Below, piece by piece: positions 2,180 to 47,601 of a stretch of DNA of 64,000 nucleotides (position 1 is the stretch's first letter; each line of letters opens with the position of its first letter). Origin of the DNA: Bacteroidota bacterium (GTDB lineage Bacteria; Bacteroidota; Bacteroidia; JABEUT01); contig JAKAOA010000001.1 of the NCBI GenBank assembly GCA_021823405.1, positions 43,628 through 107,627 of the forward strand, given 5' to 3'. The position numbers were made by a program, and so were the translations under genes. A model generated the notes under the pieces. It had not been told where the DNA came from and made no database searches. It worked only from the letters and a program-made list of their open reading frames with translations.

Positions 2180-2305
2180 CAATTGCTCCAGTCACACCTT
2201 TAGGCAAGGAATAAAGTAAAGGTAACCTTTTTTACTATCTACCCACTCCTTGGAGTAAGAAGATGACATGGCGACGCATATTGTTCAAAACTATTTTAAT
2301 TAAAT

Positions 2306-2396
2306 ATGTATTATGTAATAAATAATGTATATATTTGCGTTTTATAACTATGAGATATTAGAGATAAGATATAAACTATGAGCGATGAACTATAAG
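2306..2396. repeat. AT-rich block 'X' of the left inverted-repeat arm (inverted copy at 12391-12472)
   Basis: atgtattatgtaataaataatgtatatatttgcg has one mismatch against the reverse complement of 12441-12472. The shared motifs ataaactatgag and gcgatgaactat are rearranged between the two copies. Confidence 0.7.
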
Positions 2397-2525
2397 ATTA
2401 ACGTCTTATCCGGCAGGCGGCAATACTTTAGGTCTATTTTAAAGGAACGATGAATAACAAAACAAACGCAAAAAATAGTGACCACGACAATTATTCTGAA
2501 CAAAACAGATATGATCAATTCATTT

Positions 2526-3069
2526 AACGGGTTGACACGGGTTAACAGATTTTGGGCTGTTTTAAATTGAATAAACTTGCAAATCAACATATTATGATTT
2601 TTAGAAGGCAGAAAAGTGTCAACCCGTTCAGTTTACTAGCCGTAGGCGGTGATTTAAGCAGGTTCAATTCATACAGAATACCCCTGTCGGGAACAACAAG
2701 AGCGGCAAATTTGGACACTTTTTACCCCGAACCTGTGCAAAACTGTCCAAAATTTATCTACACACTATATTATTGAAGCGGATATGAAAATAACAAAATG
2801 GACACTTTTTACCGTGAACCTGTGCAAAACTGTCCAAAATTTAGCTACACACTATATTATGGAAGCGGATATGAAAATAACAAAATGGACACTTTTTACC
2901 GTGAACCTGTGCAAAACTGTCCAAAATTTAGCTACACACTATATTATGAAAGCGGATATAAAAATAAGAGTTATGGACACTTTATACCGTAAAGCTATGC
3001 CAAAATGTGCCCGACTACTGGAGTGGTGTGCCATTTTAATGCACACACGATATATGGGAGCGATTATGA
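2526..3069. repeat. Left inverted-repeat arm block 'Y': a leader, three tandem 87/88 bp units (2710-2797, 2798-2884, 2885-2972) and a degenerate terminal unit
   Basis: The reverse complement of 11614-11993 aligns along the whole length. Each unit carries the hairpin TTTGGACA(C)...TGTCCAAA. Units are contiguous with no spacers. Confidence 0.85.
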
Positions 3070-3312
3070 AAAATTATTATTTATTGTCACCATTAGCGGA
3101 TTATGTTTATGAAAATCAATGGAATCGAAAAAACAGTCCGGAATTTACATACGGTTGCATCCTTATCCTTGAATAACTTATATTAAATAAAAGTAAAACT
3201 GTAATATGCAATATAGTACTTACCCGCTGTAACAGCCGGCTATCAATAATAACAAACCGCCATTAGGCAGGTTGCAGGTTAATAAACCGTTTAATCCCTG
3301 TTTTTTTTAACT

Positions 3313-3834
3313 TTGAACAAAATTGCAATTATGCAAACCCTAATTTTAAACGCCGACCAAATTCAAAAAAAAATAACCCGTATAGCTTATGAGATATACG
3401 AAGCGCATGCCGGCGAAAAGGAAATAATTCTGGCAGGCATTACCCCCGGCGGTTATCTTTTTGCAGCAAGGATAAAGCACGCCTTACAGAAAATATCACC
3501 CCTTACCATTCAATTAACTAAAGTGGGAATAGATAAATCGAAGCCCGCATATCCTGCAGAAATTGAAATGGATAAAAAGCAAAAACCGGACAATATGTCG
3601 ATTGTACTGGCGGACGATGTGCTGAACACCGGTACCATACTGGCATACAGCATGAAAGCATTCCTCAATTTTCCCGTAAAATCAATTCGTATTGCAGTTC
3701 TTATCGACCGCAACCATACCATTTACCCAATTAAGTCGGATTATACCGGCTTATCAATTGCTACCACATTGCAGGAACATGTAGTGGTGAACCTGGAAAC
3801 AAAAGGGAAAGAATTTGTTGCGCTCGAAGATTAA
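3313..3834 (+). CDS. pyrR: PyrR-family phosphoribosyltransferase (bifunctional pyr regulator / uracil PRTase-like)
   Basis: ILNADQIQKKITRIAYEI, the PRPP-binding VLADDVLNTGTIL motif, and IAVLIDRNHTIYPIKSDYTG are each collinear with B. subtilis PyrR. Confidence 0.8.
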   Translation: MNKIAIMQTLILNADQIQKKITRIAYEIYEAHAGEKEIILAGITPGGYLFAARIKHALQKISPLTIQLTKVGIDKSKPAYPAEIEMDKKQKPDNMSIVLADDVLNTGTILAYSMKAFLNFPVKSIRIAVLIDRNHTIYPIKSDYTGLSIATTLQEHVVVNLETKGKEFVALED

Positions 3835-5336: not shown

Positions 5337-6872
5337 ATGCTGGTAAAAACATTCGGAAGTGCGGTACATGGAATTGATGCCACCCTCATAACAGTGGAGG
5401 TTAATGTTGGCACGGGTGTAAATTTCTTCTTGGTGGGATTGCCCGACAGCGCAGTAAAGGAAAGCCAGCAACGTATTGACGCAGCCCTGAAAAATAACGG
5501 ATACAGCATACAGGGCAAAACGATTACCATAAATATGGCGCCCGCCGATATAAGAAAGGAAGGTTCAGCATACGACCTTACAATAGCCATCGGTATACTT
5601 GCAGCTTCGGAACAAATGAAACCGGATAGTGTGGGTAACTATGTGATTATGGGAGAACTGTCATTAGATGGCGGGCTGCAGCCCATAAAAGGTGTGTTGC
5701 CTATTGCAATAAACGCACGGGCGCAAGGCATAAAGGGAATTATACTGCCCGAACAAAATGCTCGCGAAGCCGCCATAGTTGACGGGTTAATGGTTTACGG
5801 CATTAAGAATATAAAACAGGCGATTGACTTCCTGAATGGCGAAATGAACCTGGATCCTATGGTGATAGACGCCAAGGAAGCATTTTATACTCAACTCACC
5901 CAGTCCGATGTAGATTTTGCCGATGTAAAGGGACAGGAAAACATAAAACGATCTCTGGAAATAGCGGCTGCCGGCGGTCATAATGTATTACTGATTGGTC
6001 CGCCGGGCGCCGGTAAAACCATGCTTGCCAAGCGGCTACCGACCATACTACCGCCGCTTACCCTTGAAGAAGCCCTTGAAACTACCAAAATACATTCGGT
6101 GGCGGGTAAAATAGGTAGCGGTAAAGGATTGGTAACGACACGCCCCTTTCGCGCTCCTCATCATACCATAAGCGATGTAGCGCTAGTAGGCGGCGGCGGA
6201 TTCCCCCAGCCGGGCGAAATATCGCTTGCTCATAACGGCGTCCTTTTCCTTGATGAACTGCCGGAGTTTAAAAGAACGGTATTAGAGGTGATGCGTCAGC
6301 CGCTGGAAGACAGAATAATCAGAATATCGAGGGCAAAATCATCGGTGGAGTTTCCTGCAAGTTTCATGCTTGTAACAGCAATGAACCCTTGCCCCTGCGG
6401 CTACTATAATCACCCGCAGAAGGAGTGCGTTTGCGCCCCGGGAACAGTTCAAAAATATTTGAACCGCATTTCAGGACCACTTCTTGACCGGATTGATATA
6501 CATATTGAGGTGGTGCCTGTTGCTTATGGGGAGCTGTCGTCCGAAAGAGTAAACGAGAAAAGTGAGAAGGTAAGAGAACGCGTGATAAAAGCCAGAACAA
6601 TTCAGGCGGAGCGATTCGCCGATACACCTATATACTGTAATGCCCAGATGAGCTCAAAGCAATTAAAAACCTATTGCGCAATTAACGATGCCGGTCATGC
6701 ATTGCTAAAAACGGCGATGGAAAAGCTAAATCTATCTGCACGGGCATACGACAGGATTCTCAAAGTAGCAAGAACAATCGCCGATTTAAACGAATCAGCA
6801 GGTATTGAAACAGCGCACCTTGCCGAAGCGATTAATTACCGGAGTTTGGACCGGGAAAACTGGGCCGGTTGA
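5337..6872 (+). CDS. comM: YifB/ComM family Mg-chelatase-like AAA+ ATPase
   Basis: N-terminal Lon-like region MLVKTFGSAVHGIDATLITVEV. Walker A is GPPGAGKT. The C-terminal Mg-chelatase ChlI domain is present. Total length 511 aa. Confidence 0.9.
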   Translation: MLVKTFGSAVHGIDATLITVEVNVGTGVNFFLVGLPDSAVKESQQRIDAALKNNGYSIQGKTITINMAPADIRKEGSAYDLTIAIGILAASEQMKPDSVGNYVIMGELSLDGGLQPIKGVLPIAINARAQGIKGIILPEQNAREAAIVDGLMVYGIKNIKQAIDFLNGEMNLDPMVIDAKEAFYTQLTQSDVDFADVKGQENIKRSLEIAAAGGHNVLLIGPPGAGKTMLAKRLPTILPPLTLEEALETTKIHSVAGKIGSGKGLVTTRPFRAPHHTISDVALVGGGGFPQPGEISLAHNGVLFLDELPEFKRTVLEVMRQPLEDRIIRISRAKSSVEFPASFMLVTAMNPCPCGYYNHPQKECVCAPGTVQKYLNRISGPLLDRIDIHIEVVPVAYGELSSERVNEKSEKVRERVIKARTIQAERFADTPIYCNAQMSSKQLKTYCAINDAGHALLKTAMEKLNLSARAYDRILKVARTIADLNESAGIETAHLAEAINYRSLDRENWAG

Positions 6873-9964: not shown

Positions 9965-11374
9965 TCAGTTCTCGTTATCTTTTATCATTTTAAGCAATAA
10001 TTCTTCCACTTCCCTGCTGTCCCATTTACGTTCAATATCGGGTACGGCGAGAATTTTTTTCATAACTGCATCTTGTTTTGCACCCATCGCCAGGGCTTTG
10101 CTATAAGGTATATCGCTGAAAGTTACCATGGAATAAAGCGGTATCCAGAGGTCGGGATGAAGTGCACTGAAGCGGGCTTCTATCTTTTTTTGCAGGATGA
10201 AATCGGGGTGGGTGACCAGGTCGCGCATTTCAATAAAGTTGGCGACAGCCAGGTCGGCTATCGCATCGGCATTGGGTTTGCGCGCCTGCTGAAATTCCTT
10301 AGTTATGTTGCGCCATATTTCCCTGTCGTTGGCGTGCAATGCCTTGGACTGTTCGCTAAAATGGCGTTCCATAATCTGTTCCAATACAGTACAATCCTCA
10401 AAGCCGCAGTTCATACCTTGACCATAGAAGGGCACTACCCCGTGAGCCGCGTCGCCCAAAAGAGTTATTCTATCATCCGGCGACCACGGATAGCAACGTA
10501 TGGTTACGAGCGAGGCGGTAGGGTTACTGAAAAAGTCCTCCAACAGAGTTGGCATAACCGGCACAGCATCAGGGAATGTTTGCGTAAAAAATTTCTTTAC
10601 TTTATCAGGCGTATCTAGCGATGCGAACGACTCTTTTCCTTCAAACGGAAAAAACAGGGTACACGTAAAACTGCCATCAATGTTGGGTAGGGCTATCATC
10701 ATAAAAGTACCGCGCGCCCATATATGCAGACCGTTTTTATCGAAGGCGAAATCGCCGTTTTTCTTCGGTGGTATAAGTAACTCCTTGTAGCCATAGTCGA
10801 GGTAGCGCTGCGAATACTCAAACCTGTCTGTGGTGAGCTGCAAATGCAGCCGTACTGCCGAAAAGGCGCCATCCGCTCCGAATATTCGTTTGGCATTAAC
10901 AGTTGTTTCACCTGTTGAATTAACATCTGTGAGCCGCAGCTGCACATCATCATTATCGTGTAGCGATATGCCAGTGCAACGTTGATTAAAATGTATGGCA
11001 GCGCCATGTTTTTCGGCAAGGTCCATCAGCATACAGTTAAGCCCGGCGCGGGAAACGGAGAATATCGCCTGACCTTCCTTCCCGTAAGGCATAAATTGGG
11101 TATTGCCAACTTTATCATGCACCATGCGCCCCTTCATAGGTATGGCAATTTTTCTTATATCATCGTCTATGCCTACACCCTGTAATGCTTTCCAGCCGCG
11201 ATCCGAAAGAGCCAGATTAATGGATTTTCCGGCGGATATTTTCTGCTTTCGCATATCTCCGCGCCGCTCGTAAACCTCGGTTTTATACCCCCGCTTGCCA
11301 AGGTATATCGCCAGCAGAGAGCCCACAAGTCCCGCCCCGACTATTGCATAAGATTTTTCTGTCGTAATATTCAT
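9965..11374 (-). CDS. kmo: Kynurenine 3-monooxygenase (FAD-dependent)
   Basis: Collinear with eukaryotic and Cytophaga KMO. GAGLVGSL FAD motif is present, together with SINLALSDRG, FMMIALPN, LLGDAAHGVVPFYGQGMNCGFEDC. Confidence 0.85.
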   Translation of the reverse strand: MNITTEKSYAIVGAGLVGSLLAIYLGKRGYKTEVYERRGDMRKQKISAGKSINLALSDRGWKALQGVGIDDDIRKIAIPMKGRMVHDKVGNTQFMPYGKEGQAIFSVSRAGLNCMLMDLAEKHGAAIHFNQRCTGISLHDNDDVQLRLTDVNSTGETTVNAKRIFGADGAFSAVRLHLQLTTDRFEYSQRYLDYGYKELLIPPKKNGDFAFDKNGLHIWARGTFMMIALPNIDGSFTCTLFFPFEGKESFASLDTPDKVKKFFTQTFPDAVPVMPTLLEDFFSNPTASLVTIRCYPWSPDDRITLLGDAAHGVVPFYGQGMNCGFEDCTVLEQIMERHFSEQSKALHANDREIWRNITKEFQQARKPNADAIADLAVANFIEMRDLVTHPDFILQKKIEARFSALHPDLWIPLYSMVTFSDIPYSKALAMGAKQDAVMKKILAVPDIERKWDSREVEELLLKMIKDNEN

Positions 11375-11613
11375 TCGTTCTCTTTTAACCGTTAACCGGA
11401 CGCAGTATTATAAGTTTCATGCCTTTTAGTGAATGGATTTATTATGACAATGATGATAATATATAAAAATACCCCATCCAGTAAACATCTGCAAAAATAG
11501 ATACTTTTAACCAAAGCCGTGCCGAATAATTCATCACGTCTGTTATCTCTATCCGGCTTATCAGACAAACTATCAAACAAATTCCCAATAAAGAGTCAGT
11601 CATATCCATATCA

Positions 11614-11993
11614 TCATACTCGCTACCTTATATAGTGTGTGCATAAAAATGGCACACCACGCCGGTAGGCGGGCATGCTTTGGCATGGCTTCGGGGTAAA
11701 AAGTGTCCAAATCACTTATTTTTATATCCGCTTCCATAATATAGTGTGTAGATAAATTTTGGACAGTTTTGCACAGGTTCCCTATAAAAAGTGTCCAAAT
11801 TTGCCGCTCTTGTTGTTCCCGACAGGGGTATTCTGTATGAATTGAACCTGTATAAATGACCACCTGCTGCTATTGAATTGAACGGGTTAACACTTTTCCG
11901 CCTTCTAAAAATCATAATATGTTGATTATCTATTTTATTCAATTTAAAACAGCTCAAAATCTGTTAACCCGTGTCAACCCGTTAGATCTACCA
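11614..11993. repeat. Right inverted-repeat arm block 'Y': a leader, one full 88 bp unit and a degenerate terminal unit, in inverted orientation
   Basis: Its reverse complement aligns to 2526-3069 at roughly 85-90% identity outside the unit-number difference. Confidence 0.85.
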
Positions 11994-11999
11994 CTGTTG

Positions 12000-12019
12000 A
12001 ACCCGATAGCTATCGGGTT
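12000..12019. repeat. REP-like palindromic element, subtype 1 (AACCCGATAGCTATCGGGTT)
   Basis: Perfect 20 bp palindrome with the flank ttg...gccaaaattca. Member of the 7-copy family. Confidence 0.8.
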
Positions 12020-12073
12020 GCCAAAATTCACAAACCCTGTTAAGCATAGTTTAGTGAATAGTGGGAGTTGGGC

Positions 12074-12093
12074 GTCCCGATAGCTATCGGGAC
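12074..12093. repeat. REP-like palindromic element, subtype 2 (GTCCCGATAGCTATCGGGAC)
   Basis: Perfect 20 bp palindrome followed by gtgaaaagcgcaaa. Confidence 0.8.
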
Positions 12094-12390
12094 GTGAAAA
12101 GCGCAAACTCATTTGGCAGACATATCTTGCTATATGTGTTTTTGTCATTTAGTATAGAATTTACAACTTTAACTCACCGAAAGAATTCTGTCGTTTTTTG
12201 TCGGAAAATGCGTATTTTTTCATATTGCCGGTAGGGTATATTTTCAGATATTTTAATGCAACATATTGATTTACAGTTATTTTATAAATTTTTGAAAATT
12301 TGACGTTCACAAAATCATTTACAGGCACTATATTTTCTTTTCTCAAAATCATTTTCCACTATTTATTTTCTGAATTATAATTGTGTCTTT

Positions 12391-12472
12391 CATAGTTTAT
12401 ATCTCATAGTTCATCGCTTATAACTTATAGCTTCAGAGCGCAAATATATACATTATTTATTACATATTACAT
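12391..12472. repeat. AT-rich block 'X' of the right inverted-repeat arm
   Basis: Reverse complement matches 2306-2396 (see the left-arm X feature). Confidence 0.7.
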
Positions 12473-12737
12473 ATATTGATAATATATTTATTAACAATCG
12501 ACTTCACTCTGCCCTCTCGTTTTGCAAAGAGAGGTGGGAGGTAAAAGGGATTAGCTTTGTCCTATTGAAGATGTTGTCCTTTTATATTTTGGTAAGTTTT
12601 ATAGCTAAAAAGCCGCTGACTGGGATTAATCAGTGCAAATGAATAAAGTCAGATAAAAATTGACATAAGGAATTATACGGATCGTAAGTTATTTAATCTC
12701 AAAGTTTTCATAGTCCATTCGAGTTTAAACAATTAGC

Positions 12738-12776: not shown

Positions 12777-13238
12777 TTATCCAATTTCTATAACACGGGA
12801 AGTGTTAATCTTGGTTTCAGTTGATTTTGGCACGGTGATATGCAATATACCATCCTTGTAAGCTGCCGATATTTTGTCCTTTACCACCGTATCTTTAGGA
12901 ATCTGGAAGGAGCGTTGAAATGATTCAAAGCTGAACTCCCTGCGGGTGTAGTTACCTTCCTTGTCACTTTCTTCCTTGCCGTCTTCCTTGTGCCCTGAAA
13001 TTGTCAGCATGTCATTGTCAAGCTCAACTTTAAAGTTGTTCCTTTCAAGACCGGGGGCGGCTACTTCCACCTCATAACTCTTTTCTGTTTCGCGGATGTT
13101 CACTGATGGTACGCTTGCATTACCTGCCAGTCGGTTGAAAGACCAGTCAAAAATGTCCCTGTTGAATAATTCATCTAATACAGATGGAAATTCCGGGAGC
13201 AAGCTCCTGCTGTGATTTGATTTTACAAGTGTTTTCAT
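12777..13238 (-). CDS. Hsp20/alpha-crystallin family small heat-shock protein
   Basis: Alpha-crystallin domain (VNIRETEKSYEVEVAAPGLERNNFKVELDNDMLTISG ... AAYKDGILHITVPK). Confidence 0.9.
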   Translation of the reverse strand: MKTLVKSNHSRSLLPEFPSVLDELFNRDIFDWSFNRLAGNASVPSVNIRETEKSYEVEVAAPGLERNNFKVELDNDMLTISGHKEDGKEESDKEGNYTRREFSFESFQRSFQIPKDTVVKDKISAAYKDGILHITVPKSTETKINTSRVIEIG

Positions 13239-25981: not shown

Positions 25982-26028
25982 ATCTGTAAACCGGACTGCG
26001 ATTAGTCGCGTTATACAGACCATAATTG

Positions 26029-26048
26029 AACCCGATAGCTATTGGGTT
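26029..26048. repeat. REP-like palindromic element, subtype 1 (AACCCGATAGCTATTGGGTT, 1 mismatch)
   Basis: Carries the same caattg and gttaaaattca flanks as the copies at 12000, 35002 and 46471 (opposite orientation to the latter two). Confidence 0.75.
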
Positions 26049-26221
26049 GTTAAAATTCATTTATTCAAAGTATCAGTATCACTACTCGTACAGATGTACT
26101 GCCCGTAAGTGATTTAGCGACCACAAAATACCTGTACGGGCAGTCATATCAAGATGAATGTTTTACATTTTCATCCATTGTCGGTATATTTTACTTTGCG
26201 CCACCGCTATAGCTAAGGTGT

Positions 26222-27920: not shown

Positions 27921-28589
27921 TTACTCGGCGTTTTTTCTCCCATGTTTAAGCACCCTCGCTTCGGAATAAAATATTATCTCTTCAGCTATATTTTTCATGT
28001 GGTCGCCTACGCGTTCTATCATCTTCATTATACTTAATAACTGTATTGCCTGTGAAAGATGTTCGGCGTTACCTTTTGCATATTCTTCAGCAGTAATAAC
28101 GGCATGCTCGGTTATTTCGTCAATTTTCTTATCTCTTCCGAAGATTTCCCTCGCAAGCAAAGTATCTTCCTTCTCAAAAGCGATGAGCAGGCACTGGAAC
28201 ATCTCAAAACCAGTATCGAAAGCGCCCTTAATGTCAGTTTTGTTAAGAAATCCCTCGTCAAACCTATTACTATAGATTGATACAGTGCGGCCTATTCCGT
28301 CAGCCAAATCGCCTATGCGTTCCAAATTCATGTTTATTTTGAGAGCGGAGAGAACAAATCGCAGATCTACTGCCACGGGAGTAAAAAGAGCTAAAATAGT
28401 TTCACAGCGGCTGTCTATCTGTAATTCCTTTGCATTCACCAATTTTTCGGTATGTTCCAATTCTTTTAGAACTGCCTTATTGTTTTCGAGCAACGCCTTT
28501 TGCGCTCTGGAAAATTGACCATGCGTAAGGTTAAACATTTGCAGAAGTTCGGTTCTCAATGAGTCCAATTCGGCTTGAAGATGTTCCAT
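27921..28589 (-). CDS. phoU: Phosphate signalling complex protein PhoU
   Basis: Two PhoU repeats (ERIGD.A..I / ERVGDH.KNIAE). 222 aa. Downstream of pstB. Confidence 0.9.
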   Translation of the reverse strand: MEHLQAELDSLRTELLQMFNLTHGQFSRAQKALLENNKAVLKELEHTEKLVNAKELQIDSRCETILALFTPVAVDLRFVLSALKINMNLERIGDLADGIGRTVSIYSNRFDEGFLNKTDIKGAFDTGFEMFQCLLIAFEKEDTLLAREIFGRDKKIDEITEHAVITAEEYAKGNAEHLSQAIQLLSIMKMIERVGDHMKNIAEEIIFYSEARVLKHGRKNAE

Positions 28590-28668
28590 TTTATATGGTT
28601 AAGTTAGATGCTTTTTGTTTATATAAGTTCTTAAATAAGCGAAAATTGATAAGTTGAATTCCCCGATA

Positions 28669-29427
28669 TTAACCGAACCTACCTGTAATGTAGTTCTGCG
28701 TTTTTTCGTTCTTAGGATTGGTAAACACCTTTTTGGTATCGTCATATTCAAGAAGTTCGCCAAGATAAAAAAATGCGGTCATATCACTGATTCGCGCCGC
28801 CTGCTGCATATTATGGGTAACAATTACAAGGGTATAATTAGCTTTAAGTTCATACAGCAGGTCTTCTATTTTTGATGTGGAAAGCGGGTCTAATGCCGAG
28901 GTGGGCTCATCTAAAAGTATAACTTCCGGTTTCATGGCGATTGCTCGTGCAAGGCATAACCGCTGCTGCTGGCCTCCGGAGAGCGAGGTGCTCCTTACGT
29001 GCAGTTTGTCCTTAACCTCATCCCAAAGTGCAACCTTCTTCAGCGCATCCTCTGTTATCTCTTCCTTTTCGAGTTTCTTAAGTTTAATACCATTGAGCAT
29101 AAAACCGGACAGAACATTTTCCCGTATACTCATAGTTGGGAAAGGGTTCGGGCGTTGAAATACCATGCCTACATTTCGCCGCAACTGCATTGCATCCATT
29201 TCATATACATCTTCGTAGTGTAGCCGTATCTTCCCTTCTACTTTGGCTTCGGGTGTAAGGTCGTGCATACGGTTTATGGCGCGTAATATGGTCGTTTTCC
29301 CGCAACCTGACGGTCCCATGAAAGCGGTTACCCGTTTTTCAGGAATATCCATATTAATTCCCTTCAGGACTAGAGTATTTCCGAAAGATACTTTAAGGTT
29401 TTCAGTTCTTAAAATTGCACTCTCCAT
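28669..29427 (-). CDS. pstB: Phosphate ABC transporter ATP-binding protein
   Basis: Walker [10 protein letters not shown], signature LSGGQQQRL, Walker [12 protein letters not shown]. 252 aa. Confidence 0.9.
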
Positions 29428-30266
29428 TTTCTTTCAAATATTTTAATTACAGCATTCAGCAGAATAATAAACACTACAAGTATTAATGAACCGCCCCATG
29501 CTATACGGTGCCAGTCGTTATATGGACTTGATGCATAAGTAAAAATCACCTTAGGTATGGTGTCCACGGGTTTACGGGGGTCAAAGATAAGTTCAGGATT
29601 TCCGAACGCCGTGAACAACAGGGGAGCCACCTCGCCAAAAATACGTGCGATACCGATAATACAACCTGTAAAAATACCGCCTAATCCGCCAGGTAATACA
29701 ATTTTCATGGTAGTTTTAAAATAGGAGGCGCCCAATGCCAGCGATGCTTCTTTTAAAGTGCGCGGGATAAGCACCAGAGTTTCTTCAGTGTTTTTTATGA
29801 TTGGAGGGAGCATCATTATGGCAAGGGCGATGCTACCTGAAAAGGCAGAAAATTTACCTGTCGGTTTTACTATCCATACATATATAATAATACCTATTAC
29901 TATGGAAGGTATGCCCTGCAATACATCTACCGCTACTGCGAGTCGTTCGGTTAGTTTTCTGCCTCTGTTTTCGGCAAGATAAATACCAACGGATACGCCA
30001 AGCGGAATTGCAATAACAGCCGCTATAGATACCACCATTATACTCCCCACTATAGCATTAAGAATACCGCCGCCCGTTTCCCCGACAGGTTTTGGGTTTT
30101 GACTGAATAATGCCCAGTTAATGCTTGAAATTCCCTCCTTGAATAAATAATAAAGTATAATGGTAACTACCAGAAGGCAGCTTATGGTAAGGCACCAGAT
30201 GAAAGCGGAGAATATCCGGTCTTTTGCACGTCTTCGTTTCAGCCCCTGAATATCCCGCGGCATCAT
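29409..30266 (-). CDS. pstA: Phosphate ABC transporter permease PstA
   Basis: 6 TM helices with an EAA-like loop. Operon position between pstC and pstB. Confidence 0.85.
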
Positions 30267-31150
30267 AAGGAATAGCTTATTTTCTTTATTACTAACCTGC
30301 CCAGCAGGTTAATTATAGTGGTAATTATAAAAAGCATTAAACCGATTTCTATGAGCGAACTCAAATATACATCCCCTATGGCTTCGGTAAACTCATTAGC
30401 TATAACACTAGCCATAGTATATGCAGGACTGAATATATTCCGCGGCAATTCGGGTGAATTTCCTATTAAAATAGTTACTGCCATCGTTTCGCCCAGCGCC
30501 CTGCCCAGTGATAACAGGAACCCTGCTGAAATTCCCGAAATATTGGAAGGAAGAATAATTCTGGTAATTACTTCTGACCGAGTGCTTCCAAGGGCATACG
30601 CCGCTTCTTTTAAAGTTGTAGGAGTCATGCTTATTACCTGTCTCATAAGCGAAACCGAATAGGGAATAAGCATAATGGAAAGTACTATAGATGCCGTTAA
30701 TATGCCTACCCCGGGCGCAGGCATGTGCATTTTCAATTCAAATTTACCCACCAGCGGCGCAATAGTATATAATCCCCAAAAACCGTAAACTACCGTGGGG
30801 ATGGCAGCCAGTATTTCAATGGCGTTTCTGAAAATATCGGTAATAGCGCCTTTCGGGAAGTACTCGCCCAGGAAAAGAGCCGCAGCAATGGAAAACGGGA
30901 TTGAAATGAGAAGCGACAAAAAAGATGTAATAATAGTTCCTGCCAGAAAGGGGAGCATACCGAAGTGGTTTGCCACGGGGTCCCATGTTTTTCCCCACAA
31001 AAAGCCGATTCCATTGGCTTTAATGGCAGGCCATGACGAAACAGTAAGCGTAATAAAGAAAATAAGCAGCAATATCATGGTTAGAATTGATACAAAACTT
31101 AACCATCTTACAAAAATTTTATTTTCCAGTACCAGCCAGCGATTCTTCAT
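30263..31150 (-). CDS. pstC: Phosphate ABC transporter permease PstC
   Basis: 6 TM helices, conserved EAA..LG loop. 4-nt overlap with pstA. Confidence 0.85.
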   Translation of the reverse strand: MKNRWLVLENKIFVRWLSFVSILTMILLLIFFITLTVSSWPAIKANGIGFLWGKTWDPVANHFGMLPFLAGTIITSFLSLLISIPFSIAAALFLGEYFPKGAITDIFRNAIEILAAIPTVVYGFWGLYTIAPLVGKFELKMHMPAPGVGILTASIVLSIMLIPYSVSLMRQVISMTPTTLKEAAYALGSTRSEVITRIILPSNISGISAGFLLSLGRALGETMAVTILIGNSPELPRNIFSPAYTMASVIANEFTEAIGDVYLSSLIEIGLMLFIITTIINLLGRLVIKKISYSL

Positions 31151-31195
31151 CTTATCAAGGTGCGTTCCATTTCTTCAAATATATTTTGCAAAGGT

Positions 31196-31225
31196 AAAAA
31201 AAGGGAGCGCCCGCCGGCTCTCCCT
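31196..31225 (-). terminator. Intra-operon attenuating terminator between pstS and pstC
   Basis: On the minus strand the GC-rich hairpin AGGGAGAGCCGG...CGCTCCCT is followed by T7. Confidence 0.6.
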
Positions 31226-31288
31226 TTACCAAAACACAACCTCACATGAAAAAAAGCGGGCAGTGAGCACGTTAAAAACATACCGTGC

Positions 31289-32365
31289 CTATGGATTTTG
31301 CAACACCGGTTGTCCATCAAAGGTTACGGACTTAAGAATTGCTTCATCAGCGGCAACTGCCTTAGGCGGCAGCGGCGCGTATGTTAAAGGTTTAGCATAT
31401 TGTTGCCCGTCGTGTACCATCCACCACAGTTCTTTCAGGAGATTAGTCACCTTGTCCTTCGATCGGTCTCCATATTTTTGCTCCTTATAGAGTATTATCC
31501 AGGTAAAACTTGCAATAGGATACGCCTGGTCAACATTTGAGTTTGTTATACTTATACGGGTATCGGCGGGTATATCGCCGTTTGCGCACAAACTGGCGGA
31601 TTCAAGGGATGGCGTTATATAATTCCCTGCGGAATTCTTTACTTGTGCAAAAGGCATATTATTTTCAATGGCGTAAGCCAACTCTATATAACCTACCGCT
31701 CCGGGCGTTTGCTTTATTACACCGGCAACCCCTTCGTTGCCTTTACCGCCTAATTCACCATCTGGCCAATTTACCGAAGTGCCTTTACCAACTTTGCTTT
31801 GCCAATCGCTGCTGATTTTAGAGAGGTAATCGGTCCATATAAATGAAGTTCCACTGCCATCGCTCCGGTGTACTACAGTTATATCCTCATCGGGTAGCTG
31901 GGCATCGGGGTTTTCTGCCCTAATTTTATCATCGTTCCATTTGGTGATGGTTCTCAAATAAATTCCGGCGATAATATCGGGTGTTACCTTTAAAGTCGGG
32001 TTACCGGGCAGGTTGTAGCTTAATACTACCGCACCCACGCAGGTAGGGAATTCCACCAATGTCGCAGGGGCTTTACTTAATTGGTCATCGCTTAAGTAGG
32101 CATCTGATGCGCCAAAGTCCACTGTTTTATTCATGATCTGTTTTATGCCGCCGCCCGAGCCGATGGATTGATAGTTTGTCTGAATACTATCTAATTTCCC
32201 ATATTCGGAGAACATTTTAGAATAAAGCGGGTAAACGAAGGTAGAACCGGCTCCGAGCAATTGTCTGTCTTCGGGATTATTCTTATCGCCGCCGCCTGTA
32301 CATGAGGTAAAGCCAACAGATATAACGAGTAGTGCGGCAATTATTTTTGATTTTGTTGTTTTCAT
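31289..32365 (-). CDS. pstS: Phosphate-binding protein PstS (lipoprotein)
   Basis: Start placed at MKTTKSKIIAALLVISVGFTSC (signal + lipobox) rather than the longer ORF-track start. PBP fold with SGGSG and GSG phosphate-binding loops. Confidence 0.85.
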   Translation of the reverse strand: MKTTKSKIIAALLVISVGFTSCTGGGDKNNPEDRQLLGAGSTFVYPLYSKMFSEYGKLDSIQTNYQSIGSGGGIKQIMNKTVDFGASDAYLSDDQLSKAPATLVEFPTCVGAVVLSYNLPGNPTLKVTPDIIAGIYLRTITKWNDDKIRAENPDAQLPDEDITVVHRSDGSGTSFIWTDYLSKISSDWQSKVGKGTSVNWPDGELGGKGNEGVAGVIKQTPGAVGYIELAYAIENNMPFAQVKNSAGNYITPSLESASLCANGDIPADTRISITNSNVDQAYPIASFTWIILYKEQKYGDRSKDKVTNLLKELWWMVHDGQQYAKPLTYAPLPPKAVAADEAILKSVTFDGQPVLQNP

Positions 32366-32395
32366 ATATATCCTATTTTGAGTATTGATGTTGAA

Positions 32396-32429
32396 TTTAA
32401 AAAAAGTTATGGGCAGTTCGCCCATAACT
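32396..32429 (-). terminator. Rho-independent terminator between the porin gene and pstS
   Basis: On the minus strand AGTTATGGGC-gaact-GCCCATAACT (perfect 10 bp stem) is followed by T7. Confidence 0.8.
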
Positions 32430-32439
32430 TTCTATTTAT

Positions 32440-33975
32440 TTAGAATGCGAAGAGGAAGGTTACACGGTAAAGTATATAGGAATCGCTGCCCAGATTGCCT
32501 GAACCGAATCCGTTTTTGATACCATAATACCAAACATTAGGCATGATATGATATTTCTTGTCTTTGGTAGGTGTCCAGTCAACTCCGGCATTGATGAAGG
32601 TTTCGGTATATGTATTCTGCCCCGATGCCAGATTAGGCGCCATGCTTAAAAACGTTTCATTCGGACGGTTATTGATTACGCTGCTGTTATCTAAACTTGT
32701 CAGATTACTGTTTGGATTGTAATTATAGCTATAATTAACATCCGGATTGAACAAATCGAATCTGGCAAAAAGGTTTAGGCAATTTTGAATAATGGTAGCA
32801 TGGGCAAAAATGGATAGCGCAGATTCCCCTCCATTGGCGGTATCTACTATTGGTTTTCCCGGATTTGCAGCATTCCATATTGTTTCTACCTCACCGTTAA
32901 TATATGTTTGTCTGTCATATTCAAAGCCGACGCCGAACCATTTGGAATTATATACGGCATATCCCTTAAGTGTATACTGGGCGTGCTGGTATCCCTTTGA
33001 TGTGCCATAATAGAAGTTGCCATAGTTTATATAGTCGCCATAACCACCGATAGTGAGAGCTCCGTTTAAAGTATTGAAAAACACATGAAGACGGAACTTT
33101 TTAGCTGCATCAGTGGTATAGTTGTAAGGGTTTAGCAGTATTGAACCGCTGGGGCTTAATGAAGAACCGGCTAAGGTTTGAGCAATTGCATTAGTGAAAC
33201 CCGGAACAGGAGAATTCGCCGCATTATCGCCTATCATGAAGCTATAGCCAAAAAAAGAAGGAAATTTGGTTGAATCCGCTCCTTTAAAAGAAGCGATTTT
33301 ACCGCCGAGATAAACTCCCATGTCCGATGAAGCGTCCATACCGTGTATATCAAGTATTGTCTTTTCTACGGAACGATAAGTACAAAGGGGCTCTGTATTG
33401 TATGGGTCGGCGAAGGAATTGGTTGCCATTTGTCCTACTTTAAGGTCGCTGCCTTTAAATATATTACGGTACTGGATATAAGCGTATTTCATGTACATAA
33501 CGCGGTTATCATTCACGTCCTGATCACCTTCGTAAGCCAATAACACGCATCCGCTTAATCTACTGTTAGGGTGATAATCGTAGCCCAGATACGCCCTTCG
33601 GATTTCCATCGCGTTGGGGTGGGTGGTCTGTGCTGTTTTTGCCCCATTAGGGGCGCCGCCCGCATTAGGGGTTCCTACTCCCTTGTATTGTTGCTTTGTT
33701 CCTCTGCCGGCCGAGTCGCCTTGCTGCATCCAGGCATAGTCGCCGAATACGTAACCCCAGAGCCCGCCGTTTTTATTCTGCGACAAGCCCATTCCGTTCG
33801 TCAGCTCCGAGATGGCATTATTGGACAGTTGACTTGGGTTTGCCGGGGCAGGAGCCGTTACCTGGTCTTGCGCAATAGTCAGCTGGCAGGTAAGAAGTGA
33901 AAAACCAAGGATTACCATAGTTTTAACAGCTTTCCTTGTTACATTTTGAATTTTTGTAATTTGCTTTGTTTTCAT
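32440..33975 (-). CDS. Outer-membrane beta-barrel porin, putatively phosphate-selective (OprO/P-like role)
   Basis: Signal peptide, amphipathic beta-strand pattern, C-terminal ...FLFAF (terminal Phe), Gly/Asn/Tyr-rich. Located at the head of the pst locus under the candidate Pho box. Confidence 0.5.
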   Translation of the reverse strand: MKTKQITKIQNVTRKAVKTMVILGFSLLTCQLTIAQDQVTAPAPANPSQLSNNAISELTNGMGLSQNKNGGLWGYVFGDYAWMQQGDSAGRGTKQQYKGVGTPNAGGAPNGAKTAQTTHPNAMEIRRAYLGYDYHPNSRLSGCVLLAYEGDQDVNDNRVMYMKYAYIQYRNIFKGSDLKVGQMATNSFADPYNTEPLCTYRSVEKTILDIHGMDASSDMGVYLGGKIASFKGADSTKFPSFFGYSFMIGDNAANSPVPGFTNAIAQTLAGSSLSPSGSILLNPYNYTTDAAKKFRLHVFFNTLNGALTIGGYGDYINYGNFYYGTSKGYQHAQYTLKGYAVYNSKWFGVGFEYDRQTYINGEVETIWNAANPGKPIVDTANGGESALSIFAHATIIQNCLNLFARFDLFNPDVNYSYNYNPNSNLTSLDNSSVINNRPNETFLSMAPNLASGQNTYTETFINAGVDWTPTKDKKYHIMPNVWYYGIKNGFGSGNLGSDSYILYRVTFLFAF

Positions 33976-34070
33976 AAATTAAATGGTTTTGGTTTATGAT
34001 TCTGCCCGGTTTGTTATTTTTTCGGACGGTGCAAAAGTGAAGGTTGAACATTTGGTAAATATGATGCAAA

Positions 34071-34119
34071 TGTTAAGGAATTGTTAAGCATTTTCAGGTA
34101 TAGTTAAGTATTTGTTATG
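34071..34119. promoter_or_regulatory. Candidate Pho-box-like operator: TGTTAAG direct repeats on an 11-bp register in the porin-pst / phoB divergent promoter
   Basis: TGTTAAG (34071-34077), gaat spacer, TGTTAAG (34082-34088), then aGTTAAG (34102-34108) and TGTTAtG (34113-34119). A 7+4 architecture as for PhoB boxes. Confidence 0.4.
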
Positions 34120-34181
34120 ACTAAATTTTGTTGCTTATTTAACCTAACTTTGCAGCCAGTTGTAAATTAGAATTCTAAAGC

Positions 34182-34862
34182 ATGGATAAAATCAAAATAT
34201 TATTGGCAGACGACGAACCGGATGTACTGGATTTTCTAACCTTTAACCTTCAAAGGGAGGGATATGAGGTAGTTACAGCCATCAATGGCAGAGAAGCCAT
34301 AAAACTTGCAAAAAAGGAAACGCCTAATCTGATAATTCTGGATGTGATGATGCCCGAAATGGACGGCATTGAGGCATGCAAAGAACTGCGCACGATGCCC
34401 GAATGCAAAAATGCACATATCATTTTCCTTACAGCGCGTACCGAAGATTATTCCCAGATTGCAGGACTGGATTCAGGCGCCGATGACTATGTTTCAAAGC
34501 CAATAAAACCTCGGGTTCTGATAAGCCGTATAAATGCGCTGATGCGCCGAAAGAACACTGAAGAAGAGCCATCAGGCATAATTGATATCGGCGGCGGAAT
34601 GACGATTGATAAAGCGGGATACCAAGTAAAAATAAACGGCGCTCAACTTTCACTTCCGCGTAAGGAATTTGAGTTGCTGAATCTCCTTGCCTCAAAGCCG
34701 GGTAAGGTATTCAGCCGTGATGATATATTACACAAAATCTGGGGCGAGGATGTAGTTGTAGGCGACCGTACCATTGACGTTCATATTCGTAAATTGAGAC
34801 AGAAACTGGGAGAAGAGAAAATAAAGACCATAAAAGGCATCGGTTATAAATTTGAATTCTGA
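34182..34862 (+). CDS. phoB: OmpR/PhoB-family response regulator
   Basis: Receiver (LLADDEPD...IILDVMMPEMDG) plus winged-helix trans_reg_C. Adjacent to pst and followed by a histidine kinase. Confidence 0.75.
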   Translation: MDKIKILLADDEPDVLDFLTFNLQREGYEVVTAINGREAIKLAKKETPNLIILDVMMPEMDGIEACKELRTMPECKNAHIIFLTARTEDYSQIAGLDSGADDYVSKPIKPRVLISRINALMRRKNTEEEPSGIIDIGGGMTIDKAGYQVKINGAQLSLPRKEFELLNLLASKPGKVFSRDDILHKIWGEDVVVGDRTIDVHIRKLRQKLGEEKIKTIKGIGYKFEF

Positions 34863-34946
34863 AGGTCAATCACCAACCTTCTCTATTTATGCTGCCCGTA
34901 TGAGATTTTACAACCGTGTGCCACCTTGGCTATAACGGTTGCGCAA

Positions 34947-35037
34947 AGCAAAATACCTATATGAGCAGTTATACCGATGCTATGAATTTGAGAATTTTAA
35001 CAACCCGATGCTATCGGGTTCAATTGCAGTCGGTATA
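34947..35037. repeat. Long (~91 bp) form of the REP/MITE-like element (palindrome core 35002-35020) between phoB and phoR
   Basis: Aligns base-for-base with 46417-46507 (gcaaaatac...tgaatttg...caacccgat(a)gctatcgggttcaattg..gtcggtata). Confidence 0.75.
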
Positions 35038-35155
35038 CCTAACGTAATTCCATACCATTTTTAAATGTTTACTGCAACTATTGTTGAACGCATTTGTATT
35101 GATTACTGTGTAATATTTTCTATTTTAGTATCTTAGCTCTCCATAGAATACAGCT

Positions 35156-36169
35156 TTGAAAAAGGACTCTATCATTTTCTCCGTCGGATGTGCCCTGCTT
35201 ATTACAGGCATTACCTATTTTATTTCCATTCTATTACCCGCCCGATTACATCCGCACCCGATTTGGTTTGCCGCATTATCCGCGATAAGTATTGTTGCCG
35301 CCACAGTTGCATATAATATTATGGTCAGCAGGAAAATAAAGCGAATTATAGAAATTGTTACAGGCGAAAATGATTTAAACAATGCATCACTCGGCGTTCT
35401 TGAAGAATCAATCCGCAAGTTACTCCGCGAAAGAAAGGATGAACTTGAGAAAATACAAAAACTTGAAAGGCACAGACGAGAGTATCTTGGAAATATTTCA
35501 CATGAAATGAAAACCCCGTTATTTCATATACAGGGGTATGTTTCTACCCTTGCCGAGAATAATATAGACGACCCTGCCATGGTAAAAAGATACCTCGAAA
35601 GAACAGGTAAGAGTATAGAACGCCTTATCCATATTCTGGAAGACCTTGATACAATTTCACAGCTTGAAAGTGAAGAGATAAAGAGTGAAATGGAACCATT
35701 CGATATTGTAGAGCTGTGCCGTGAGGCGCTCGAATCGGAAGAGACGAATGCTCTTAAAAAAAATATTGCGCTTATTCTGATGAACGAAAACGGAAAAATG
35801 GCAGTTAACGGAGATAGGTTTCGTATCAGACAAGTGCTGGTAAATCTTGTGGTAAACTCTATTCGATATGGGAAGAAGGATGGCGAAACCCGGATTCGTC
35901 TTAAGGACGATGGCGATTCGGTACTGGTGGAGGTTGCCGATAACGGCATAGGCATAGCGCCAGAACATCTTCCTCGGCTCTTTGAGCGCTTTTACAGAGT
36001 AGATAAAGACCGCTCAAGACAACATGGAGGCACAGGGCTGGGCTTATCAATTGTAAAACATATTCTCGAAGCGCATCATCAGACCATTCAAGTAATGAGC
36101 ACTCCCGGGGTAGGTTCGGTATTTTTCTTCCATCTGAAAAAAGCCCCACATTACAGCAGCTTCAGTTAG
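35156..36169 (+). CDS. phoR: Sensor histidine kinase (PhoR-like)
   Basis: Two N-terminal TM helices, H-box SHEMKTPL, N/G1/G2 boxes (DNGIGI, GGTGLGLSIV). Confidence 0.75.
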   Translation: MKKDSIIFSVGCALLITGITYFISILLPARLHPHPIWFAALSAISIVAATVAYNIMVSRKIKRIIEIVTGENDLNNASLGVLEESIRKLLRERKDELEKIQKLERHRREYLGNISHEMKTPLFHIQGYVSTLAENNIDDPAMVKRYLERTGKSIERLIHILEDLDTISQLESEEIKSEMEPFDIVELCREALESEETNALKKNIALILMNENGKMAVNGDRFRIRQVLVNLVVNSIRYGKKDGETRIRLKDDGDSVLVEVADNGIGIAPEHLPRLFERFYRVDKDRSRQHGGTGLGLSIVKHILEAHHQTIQVMSTPGVGSVFFFHLKKAPHYSSFS

Positions 36170-46309: not shown

Positions 46310-46416
46310 TAGCAAACTTTTTCTTTAAAACCGTAAAATAACAGTTAGTTAAATGGCTGTACCCGCCGAATTAGCTTTGTACGCCTTTTATACTGCTCGT
46401 AGGTCATTTTGCCAAT

Positions 46417-46507
46417 GCAAAATACTTATACGAGGAGTTCTACATATGCTTTGAATTTGCGTATTTTGGCAACCCGATAGCTATCGGGTTCAATTGTGGT
46501 CGGTATA
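46417..46507. repeat. Long (~91 bp) form of the REP/MITE-like element (palindrome core 46471-46490)
   Basis: Collinear with 34947-35037. The core is the perfect palindrome AACCCGATAGCTATCGGGTT. Confidence 0.8.
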
Positions 46508-46605: not shown

Positions 46606-47601
46606 TTGGAGCAAAAGGTCGGTTCTTTAATATCAGCCATTAACGAATCTGTAGGCGCTAAAAAGCCGTTCCTGTTTATCATTGACTTTAATTGCGAACA
46701 TCCTATCGTTCGCTTCCTCAACGAAATTGACCCTGAAGAAATCCTATATGATTTTAAAGGATTTACCAATCTGCCGACATATACTAAAAGCAATAACAAC
46801 GCCCCGTTTTATTTCCGGAAATTCCCCATCCCATATTCAACCTACAGAGAAAGGTTTGACAGGGTTAGAAAAGAACTGCTGCAAGGCAACAGCTATCTCC
46901 TTAACTTGACATTCCCCACGCCGGTAGAAACCTCACTGACGCTCCAAGAGATATTCATCCGCAGCGAAGCACCTTACAAGCTTCTCCTGAACAAAGACAA
47001 TGAACTAAAATTTGTAGTTTTTTCACCGGAATCCTTTGTAAATATAAAGGATGGAGTAATACGTTCTTTTCCGATGAAAGGTACTATAAACGCCTCGGTT
47101 CCGAATGCCGAAAATATTATCCTGAAAGACGCTAAAGAGCTGGCGGAACACTCCACCATCGTTGACTTGATAAGGAATGATTTGAGTATGGTGGCAAATA
47201 ATGTAAAGCTGGAAAGATTCCGTTATGTAGAACGAATTAAAACAAACGTATCCCAACTGTTGCAGATAAGTTCAGAAATAAGCGGCACGGTGAAAAAAGA
47301 ATTACGCAACAGCTACGGTGAACTTCTTGCGCTGCTTCTACCAGCCGGCTCAATCAGCGGCGCACCTAAATGCAAAACAGTGCAAATAATAAAGGAAGCT
47401 GAAGGTTACGAACGGGGCTATTATACAGGGGTGTTCGGCTATTCCGATGGCGAAAAACTCGAAAGCGCGGTAATGATACGCTTTATAGAACAAACCCAAA
47501 ATAACCTCTGTTTTAAAAGCGGCGGCGGAATAACCATATACAGCAACCCGGAAAGCGAGTACCGTGAACTAATAGATAAAGTTTATGTGCCTTTTAATTG
47601 A
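46606..47601 (+). CDS. pabB: Aminodeoxychorismate synthase component I-like chorismate-binding enzyme (short form)
   Basis: Chorismate-binding domain motifs (SPE.F..., GSISGAPK, YERGYYTGVFGY, GGGI). Lacks the N-terminal regulatory domain of long TrpE/PabB. Confidence 0.7.
   Translation: MEQKVGSLISAINESVGAKKPFLFIIDFNCEHPIVRFLNEIDPEEILYDFKGFTNLPTYTKSNNNAPFYFRKFPIPYSTYRERFDRVRKELLQGNSYLLNLTFPTPVETSLTLQEIFIRSEAPYKLLLNKDNELKFVVFSPESFVNIKDGVIRSFPMKGTINASVPNAENIILKDAKELAEHSTIVDLIRNDLSMVANNVKLERFRYVERIKTNVSQLLQISSEISGTVKKELRNSYGELLALLLPAGSISGAPKCKTVQIIKEAEGYERGYYTGVFGYSDGEKLESAVMIRFIEQTQNNLCFKSGGGITIYSNPESEYRELIDKVYVPFN

Follow-up and report, generated by a model that had tools for sequence, protein, structure and literature searches.

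A candidate modular intergenic repeat with an internal 87-bp tandem array in a Bacteroidota chromosome

Results

Two inverted copies of an intergenic composite

We analyzed a 64,000-nucleotide stretch from the genome of a Bacteroidota bacterium (assembly GCA_021823405.1, contig JAKAOA010000001.1, positions 43,628 to 107,627 of the forward strand), hereafter the window, whose own coordinates are used throughout. It is ordinary Bacteroidota chromosome, with a GC content of about 42%. One of its intergenic regions holds 87-bp units in a tandem array (2710-2971) that leads into a diverged terminal unit extending to 3069; a second copy of this arrangement is found at 11985-11614, inverted relative to the first one and 8.5 kb away. 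The left arm is flanked by a KdsB-like gene (1421-2179) and a gene for a PyrR-like phosphoribosyltransferase (3331-3834), and the right arm by genes for HSP20 (12777-13238, minus strand) and a FAD monooxygenase (9965-11374, minus strand). Both arms point to the inner gene and have the same orientation as that gene. The segment between them encodes a 378-aa protein, a tRNA-Lys, a ComM-like ATPase, a PMT_2 glycosyltransferase and a thiolase. Our best reading is that the array represents the internal minisatellite of a composite that resembles a MITE (miniature inverted-repeat transposable element).

A global alignment of both arms delimits this composite: homology starts sharply at TAACGGGTTGACAC (2524 in the left arm and 11985 in the right one) and ends at ..GCGA(T/G)TATGA (3069 and 11614). 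In pairwise matches, 2522-2793 is 92% identical to 11716-11987, and 2886-3069 is 87% identical to 11614-11797. The order of modules is the same in both arms: a leader (L; 2524-2628 on the plus strand and 11881-11985 on the minus strand), a connector block (X; 2629-2709, plus, and 11800-11880, minus), a variable number of units (U), and a diverged tail or terminal unit (T; 2972-3069, plus, and 11614-11711, minus). Distinct 5' and 3' modules hence surround a spacer-less array whose number of units differs between copies (3 vs 1). A preliminary description of this DNA, made from its sequence, had already seen a repeat element with a distinct leader, and the arm alignment bears this out. The leader that it had placed at 2526-2709, with about 150 bp, is indeed conserved, although its actual span is 2524-2709 (186 nt).

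Block X is specific to this lineage: its 3' part is 100% identical between arms, and a 51-nt probe taken from it matches the two arms only. It also contains a terminator-like hairpin of 10 pairs (GCTCTTGTTGTTCCCGACAGGGGT) that is antisense to the element and identical in both arms (2680-2703, minus, and 11806-11829, plus). Two runs, of 66 and 44 nt, are perfectly conserved between the arms, and the arm differences are clustered, the longest identical run (66 nt) being reached in 227 of 10,000 permutations (p=0.023).

Within the array, Tandem Repeats Finder reports a period of 87, 3.4 copies, 92% matches and 0% indels at 2712-3008, and a repeat search places three copies starting at 2712, 2799 and 2886. 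Across the window, the 40-nt core of the unit has three matches in the left arm and a single one in the right, four in all, while none is expected from shuffled sequences. The left-arm units, all on the plus strand, are unit 1 (2710-2796, 87 nt), unit 2 (2797-2883, 87 nt) and unit 3 (2884-2971, 88 nt). The right arm has a single unit of 88 nt (11712-11799, minus). The higher number of abutting units in one arm that had been noted earlier is thus three against one, with a terminal unit in each arm. Start-to-start spacing in the left arm is 87, 87 and then 88 nt, which corrects an earlier proposal of an 87/88-bp alternation.

Units 1 and 2 are 93% identical and units 2 and 3 are 95% identical; compared to the right-arm unit, the left-arm units reach 89-90%. 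Terminal units are paralogues of the ordinary units: they are 70-77% identical to them, allowing for a 21-nt insertion in the terminal units, and 80% identical to each other. The left one contains a hairpin GTGTGC-N9-GCACAC, and homology between arms stops at its last base (3069). Unit 1 is the orthologue of the right-arm unit, with which it has a TTTATC variant in common; unit 2 is a duplicate specific to the left arm and has CCGTG and TTTAGC variants in common with unit 3; and the 3' end of unit 3 corresponds to the right-arm junction into the tail. The correspondence of unit 1 with the right-arm unit, and of the 3' end of unit 3 with the right-arm junction, fits an internal duplication in the left arm.

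The inverted repeat of the unit is TTTGGACA / TGTCCAAA. Its nonamers, TTTGGACAC and CTGTCCAAA, are 24 nt apart, instead of the 17-19 nt first described, and the loop between the paired octamers measures 26 nt. Of the 8-9 bp stem initially proposed, 8 bp are found in unit 1 and in the right-arm unit only; in units 2 and 3 the stem has 6 bp (start AATGGACA). Unit 1 reads TTTGGACAC, 15 nt, TGTGCAAAAC and TGTCCAAAAT, and a 44-nt tail. Each unit follows the same design, with an inverted copy of a motif (TTTGGACAC, reverse complement GTGTCCAAA) preceding two direct copies that are 10 nt apart (TGTGCAAAAC / TGTCCAAAAT). The leader has the same content in another order: two direct copies 10 nt apart at its 5' end (GGGTTGACAC / GGGTTAACAG) and an inverted copy at its 3' end (GTGTCAACCC). 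It is closed by a terminal inverted repeat (TIR) of 13 bp in the window, AACGGGTTGACAC / GTGTCAACCCGTT.

A dispersed family of leader elements

A pattern scan of JGI metagenomes with GGGTTGACANNGGTTRACAGATTT returned 24 contigs, with up to six different contigs per assembly. A locus of a related metagenome-assembled genome (MAG), L015, carries a copy of 2526-2628 at 73% identity, found with blastn and nhmmer. With a profile search we found full-length elements of about 103 nt in nearly all 24 contigs, L087 giving a short partial match only. The window arm resembles this family over 2522-2628 only. From these matches we assign the first ~105 nt of the leader to a hitherto undescribed family of intergenic elements, found on the 24 metagenome contigs and in the one MAG. 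The leader pattern had 0 matches in IMG/VR, and searches of the literature on the motif strings and on interspersed repeats or MITEs in Bacteroidetes found no paper on this family.

The TIR measures 10-13 bp across the family, (AAC)GGGTTGACAC / GTGTCAACCC(GTT). An alignment of 25 leader sequences contains the invariant blocks AAC-GGGTTGACA-NN-GGTTGACAGATTT, TTTTT, TTGATTATCA, TTAT.TTTT and AAAAAGTGTCAACCC, parted by variable spacers of constant length. In orthologous pairs the leader element is 90-97% identical, and the adjacent 50-100 nt on each side are replaced by other modules. We rejected a small protein or leader peptide (frame ..NGLTRVDRF..) as an explanation for the family: at least 20 of the 25 copies have stops in each frame, and there is no conserved start. 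A protein search with a spurious open reading frame (ORF) called over one element returned the query itself and one relative only.

Several other modules are found beside the leaders. One of them, present on JGI metagenome contigs L083-L106 (for instance L098:8000-8100, L090:9262-9330 and L084:908-1030), comprises a T8A8 palindrome, GCCCGAAA, and arrays such as TGGACA-N4-GTGACA-N4-GTGACA-N4-GTGTCA, in a 10-nt phase. Its side relative to the leader, upstream or downstream, changes from locus to locus, so intergenic modules are shuffled in this lineage. Hairpin modules (a 5-nt stem, loop, stem, and then GAC(A/G)) are found downstream of leaders in L083, L088, L091, L093, L094, L100 and L084/L089/L095/L103; GATGCTTCGACAGGCTCAGCATGACA and ATTGCCACGCTCCGCTCGCAATGACG are examples, and their stems covary between copies. 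A recurring conserved block, CACGTGAGGTG..AGGTTTGATAATAG..AATTGACACATAGATGCAAA..ACTGTGCC, is also found downstream of leader elements. Neither the hairpin modules nor this block had a match in Rfam.

A predicted promoter module upstream of the leader

Upstream of the composite there is a weaker match between arms (2280-2381 vs 12498-12390, 76% over 109 nt), with an identical 24-mer that ends in TATATTTG. This is a perfect match to the Bacteroidetes sigma-A -7 box, TAnnTTTG (consensus taken from PMC9723704). We call the AT-rich module that ends in this box P. In the left arm it spans 2285-2338 (plus), inside the weaker repeat, with the box at 2330-2337; in the right arm it spans 12440-12491 (minus), with the box at 12448-12441. 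In both arms the box is upstream of the element and oriented toward it, so that a promoter is predicted here. Scans found no canonical sigma-70 or Bacteroidetes promoter inside the leader or the units.

The association of P with L extends to other genomes. Both window arms and at least 12 loci have a stereotyped AT-rich module (..ATATAATAAAT..TAnnTTTG) on the strand of L and upstream of it, usually 120-225 nt before L. In the right arm this distance is about 450-460 nt and includes extra palindromic repeat modules. A profile of the P module matches only beside L elements, and in the window only in the two arms, a result that is partly circular because the sequences used to build it are among the matches. 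Within 400 nt of family members, TAnnTTTG boxes are found 18 times upstream and 16 times downstream on the strand of the element, and four and three times, respectively, on the other strand (34 vs 7). The leader had been said to look like a transcribed 5' region, a claim to which this same-strand sigma-A module, in both arms and the related loci, lends indirect support. The next gene downstream of a leader element is co-oriented with it in about 14 of 19 cases. These genes are functionally unrelated (GDH, MsrA, an ABC-F protein, MnmG, an aminotransferase, PDH-E1 and RecR).

Other repeats surround the promoter-like boxes. Just downstream of them, at 2340-2400 and 12389-12439, there are degenerate repeats, AACTATGAG / TTATAAGC, with a period of 21 in Tandem Repeats Finder; similar TTATGA(A/G)T runs come after the leader elements of L085 and L103. 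A separate intergenic family of about 100 nt, built around the perfect 20-nt palindrome AACCCGATAGCTATCGGGTT, is present at 46409-46507, 34939-35037, 26012-26093 (reverse) and 11990-12034 (reverse), with a related palindrome at 12074-12093. One copy of it abuts the right-arm leader, and a similar palindrome is directly upstream of the leader element in contig L101. This family looks REP-like or terminator-like, and its sequence is unlike that of the 87-bp units. Just downstream of the copy at 46409-46507, ORFs 47074-47601 and 47585-48184 match only the C-terminal parts of Chorismate_bind and Aminotran_4 (PabB/PabC-like); they may be truncated, frameshifted or have mis-called starts.

Both inner genes keep a native proximal -7 box outside the repeat: TAACTTTG at 3308-3315 (plus) for the PyrR-like gene, downstream of the repeat, and TATTTTTG at 11492-11499 (minus) for the FAD monooxygenase gene. 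In ten relatives, the region upstream of pyrR measures about 100-150 nt and has an equivalent TACCTTTG -7 box and no element, as compared to 1.1 kb in the window. The absence of the element in these relatives, together with the conserved proximal promoters, suggests that the composite is an insertion. The gene order around pyrR is unlike that of all relatives, only the pyrR-p378 pair being conserved. Among relatives at the species level, the nearest is a Bacteroidia MAG whose version of the 378-aa protein has 81% amino-acid identity, followed by a group with 64-69%.

Structure and a possible RNA function

The units had been put forward as candidates for a structured noncoding RNA (ncRNA), a proposal that found no backing in our structure tests. 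At the gathering score, cmscan against Rfam returned the tRNA-Lys only for the whole window; at E≤10, region 2180-3320 gave three chance-level matches only; and twenty related loci gave one tRNA only. The whole arm (2520-3075) folds worse than shuffled sequences (z=+1.07), and hairpins of the left-arm units, with -9.5 to -10.6 kcal/mol, have z values between -1.3 and +0.1. In folding, only the 13-bp inverted repeat closing the leader (z -3.5 / -5.5) stands out, along with the unit and tail of the right arm (z about -2.4; -2.4 for the hairpin of the unit). With the 25 leader sequences, RNAalifold predicts 17 pairs, which belong to the outer inverted repeat only and have 0 compensatory changes; the 3' CCC of the leader stem varies without compensation, and no riboswitch-like covariation was found between the variable segments. 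A TT-to-AA change in units 2 and 3 shortens their stem and is also uncompensated, although with only six unit copies the power for units is low.

A first alternative to a modular repeat is a dedicated ncRNA gene or cis-acting RNA leader. Here P would drive a transcript of about 0.7-0.8 kb, with L, X, units and tail, in which the repeated hairpins and the TGTSCAAAA motifs act as sites at the RNA level, for example as a protein sponge whose capacity would be tuned by the number of units. The strongly strand-specific link of P to L speaks for it, as do the long runs conserved perfectly between arms and the right tail's weak hairpin, which is terminator-like and has a T-run (11663-11651); against it, the sense strand of the left arm has no canonical terminator. 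Also in its favor, all six units keep the stem TGGACA(C) / (G)TGTCCA, even with 21 extra nt in the loop of terminal units, and such conservation across loop lengths favors a hairpin of RNA or single-stranded DNA over a duplex site of fixed spacing. Given the lack of Rfam matches, of excess folding energy in the arm or left-arm units, and of compensatory pairs, we consider this explanation unlikely.

Copies elsewhere and a possible local origin

Scans for the unit gave 0 matches in GTDB species representatives, JGI metagenomes and IMG/VR; they required an exact match to a 21-base pattern and would miss diverged copies. Likewise, blastn against plasmids and phages gave no match. With two known copies in inverted orientation 8.5 kb apart, and units that are found nowhere else, one can suspect a purely local event: an intergenic region duplicated in inverted orientation, perhaps in a rearrangement around the 8.5-kb tRNA-Lys segment, and containing an ordinary variable number tandem repeat (VNTR) with no mobility or function. 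The unusual gene order at pyrR places a rearrangement breakpoint here. Yet the point at which homology between arms begins coincides exactly with the 5' boundary of L, the dispersed module, and P accompanies both arms at different distances, as it does in unrelated loci of other genomes. Divergence between arms (8-13%), with its clustered differences, also indicates that the two copies are old and maintained. A local event is hence distinctly unlikely.

Motif arrays and possible binding proteins

The TGT(G/C)CA motif, with its 10-nt phase and inverted partner, is probably a recognition motif, predicted from its arrangement, for a transposase or another DNA-binding protein. A third alternative builds on this, and proposes that the arms are arrays of protein-binding sites in duplex DNA, where TGT(G/C)CA / GACA motifs in a 10-bp phase would recruit a regulator or nucleoid-type protein upstream of both genes. 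The direct repeats of L and of every unit have this phase, the GACA-type arrays of related contigs are also beside L, and the conserved blocks of the leader, with their fixed-length spacers and lack of covariation, are compatible with such sites. In the arm, GACA/TGTC reaches about 4 times its average density in the window, a figure partly due simply to unit repetition. Nevertheless, ordinary and terminal units differ by 21 nt in how their inverted half-sites are spaced, family members are followed by genes of unrelated functions, and no candidate binding protein was found, all of which makes this explanation improbable.

PhoB was considered as a binder, given that the window contains pst-phoU and a PhoBR-like pair, and was rejected: the likely Pho box, TGTTAAG-N4-TGTTAAG, is unlike TGTSCA. 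This box is at 34071-34088, between the pst operon and the PhoB-like regulator, with a third GTTAAG at 34103-34108. The phosphate regulon (27921-36169) encodes PhoU, PstB, PstA, PstC, PstS, a 511-aa protein without a Pfam match, a divergent OmpR-family regulator and a histidine kinase. We also discarded the geometry of integron attC sites, in which, as judged from sequence, the motif order is the reverse of the one found here, and an invertible promoter, since the inverted repeats are only ~77 bp apart and there is no recombinase nearby.

Source data and coding potential

The locus is also carried by an ENA contig, by contigs from Logan and by the NCBI MAG GCA_027320225.1 (contigs DAHVLS01...). 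All public contigs that match it appear to derive from one read set, SRR13206618, and its presumed ENA/NCBI derivatives, so the left-arm count of three units has no independent confirmation. The window and the ENA contig show a single difference over 5,491 bases, G vs A at 2901. This position is inside the 5-nt variable patch of unit 3, which differs between units (CCCCG / CCGTG / TAGGG), and the difference is either a population polymorphism or an assembly ambiguity inside the array. Whichever side they come from, the contigs of ENA, Logan and the NCBI MAG stop at ~5491. This position is in the ComM-like gene (5337-6872), and self-BLAST found no repeat there; the shared end probably reflects a local problem, of coverage or variants, in a single read set.

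A copy number or an array created by short-read mis-assembly would agree with the common read set, with the position of that single difference, and with one Logan contig that breaks inside unit 3, where it starts. It is nonetheless very improbable: the three copies can be told apart by diagnostic differences between units, the ENA contig runs across the entire array and shows the same structure, and the NCBI MAG contig spans the right arm.

Regarding coding potential, ORF 2784-3176 (130 aa), contrary to the earlier statement that ORFs lose frame as units alternate, keeps its frame through units 2 and 3, because 87 nt are 29 codons, and repeats one 29-residue peptide. At the 88-nt step into the terminal unit the repeat slips +1 relative to the frame, and the frame stays open. 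A single frame is in fact open through X, units and tail in both arms. In this shared frame, the ratio of nonsynonymous to synonymous changes (pN/pS) is 2.29 for leader plus unit 1 and 0.98 for unit 3 plus tail, and the 46 differences between arms are spread evenly over codon positions 1/2/3, as 12/18/16. Where the left-arm ORF begins with ATG, the right arm has ATA. A Pfam search of the ORFs of the element gave no match, and the 173-codon open frame through the units has no homologue among 5.8 billion proteins. With these figures, which agree with the non-coding character proposed earlier, the composite is predicted not to code for protein. That ORF 2784-3176 of the left arm and ORF 11600-11863 (87 aa) of the right one encode a small protein with repeats is hardly credible, despite the open frame, a unit length that is a multiple of 3, and gene callers having annotated the 130-aa ORF on the ENA contig, given the substitution pattern, the register shift, the unconserved start, the lack of homologues, and the fact that large BOX elements also create such ORFs (PMC3049150).

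Discussion

We interpret the composite as a modular non-coding interspersed repeat of the BOX/BrickBuilt type, whose internal 87-bp minisatellite expands and contracts, and we give this reading a probability of roughly 0.55. BrickBuilt is a MITE of Porphyromonas gingivalis, intergenic and with promoter activity, that is composed of a leader, spacer-less tandem repeats and a tail, with a 23-nt unit, 1-22.8 copies per array and 19 dispersed copies per genome (PMC4596501). Our element is similar in several respects: it belongs to the same phylum, has a leader, a variable spacer-less array and a tail, is intergenic beside housekeeping genes, and has small inverted repeats at its ends, promoter elements associated with it, and spurious ORFs called across it. 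It differs in the length of the unit (87 nt) and its copy number (1-3 here), in the number of composites (two seen vs 19), and in that the inverted repeat closes the leader module alone and not the whole composite. No sequence similarity is expected between them.

The BOX elements of pneumococci have a boxA, a variable tandem array of boxB and a boxC; large copies create ORFs, and both TIRs and target-site duplications (TSDs) have been reported (PMC3049150). As in BOX, distinct end modules surround a variable internal array whose copy number shifts by slippage or unequal crossover, there is hairpin potential, and large copies make ORFs; effects on the expression of neighboring genes are a further BOX feature in this comparison. 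Unlike BOX, which is found in Firmicutes and has no homology to the Bacteroidota element, neither TIR nor TSD was found here for the composite. A boxB unit measures about 45 nt and BOX exceeds 100 copies per genome.

Other known repeats are more distant. VNTRs of the MIRU type are head-to-tail intergenic units of 40-100 bp whose lengths can keep short ORFs open and whose copy number varies between loci; they are dispersed in tens of loci and have no distinct leader and tail. Our units are also intergenic and head-to-tail, but are enclosed by a leader and a tail. REPs are palindromes of 20-40 nt linked to RAYT transposases, while Correia and ERIC elements measure 100-150 bp and have TIRs. The L module is like the latter in being small, intergenic and bounded by a TIR. 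We know of no internal tandem array of 87-bp units in the REP/BIME, ERIC or Correia families. With an 87-nt unit, a 6-8 bp stem, and no RAYT, Y1 or other transposase in the window, the array does not qualify as the REP array, in a strict sense, that had been considered at the outset. A leader followed by direct repeats is also reminiscent of CRISPR; as the preliminary description recognized, the arrangement is not CRISPR-like, for units abut with no unique spacers, the period is 87 nt, and there are no cas domains among the 53 ORFs of the window.

We infer from sequence comparison that the composite may be mobile. Dispersal is seen for L, on the 24 metagenome contigs and in L015, and the full composite is found twice in 64 kb; L has a TIR of 10-13 bp. 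A number of observations weigh against the composite being a mobile repeat. It is known in full in two copies only, both inside a span of 10 kb, and X, U and T were found nowhere else in GTDB representatives, JGI metagenomes, IMG/VR, plasmids and phages, with collection scans restricted to exact matches of a 21-base pattern. Neither copy has a TSD, the whole composite lacks a TIR, and no pair of TIR motifs is found at transposon distance in any locus. Among the 53 ORFs of the window there is no transposase, integrase, RAYT or cas gene, nor was a cognate transposase found. Finally, the clustered differences between arms could reflect functional constraint or gene conversion, rather than neutral selfish DNA.

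If the composite is a modular repeat, its ancestral form would be L-X-U-T, as in the right arm, and it would have reached the pyrR site as an insertion. The two extra units of the left arm would then have arisen through slipped-strand mispairing of the 87-bp repeats or their unequal recombination. The sigma-A module that accompanies L across genomes leads us to predict that the element is transcribed, possibly from P through L, units and tail, as a long untranslated leader or a read-through RNA. Effects on neighboring genes would stem from the added promoter activity and the hairpins, and not from a specific folded RNA.

More speculatively, P, the GACA arrays, L and the downstream modules (X, units and tail) might together form an undescribed, dedicated transcription unit of uncultured soil/freshwater Bacteroidia. 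This would be a modular ncRNA or a DNA scaffold of TGTNCA / GACA motifs in a 10-nt phase, recruiting a protein, with the 87-nt units varying the number of sites; we regard it as an unlikely conjecture.

If the modular repeat is the correct reading, there are practical consequences. Such arrays would break short-read assemblies and yield spurious ORFs such as the 130-aa "gene", and they could serve as VNTR markers for strain typing. Inverted copies 8.5 kb apart could mediate the inversion of the tRNA-Lys segment. The part most worth following is the leader family of about 100 nt, without a match in Rfam and with a tight strand-specific link to a stereotyped promoter module. The composite itself would represent a new sequence family among the few bacterial modular repeats with internal minisatellites (BOX and BrickBuilt), found in an uncultured lineage of Bacteroidia and with an unusually long unit of 87 bp.

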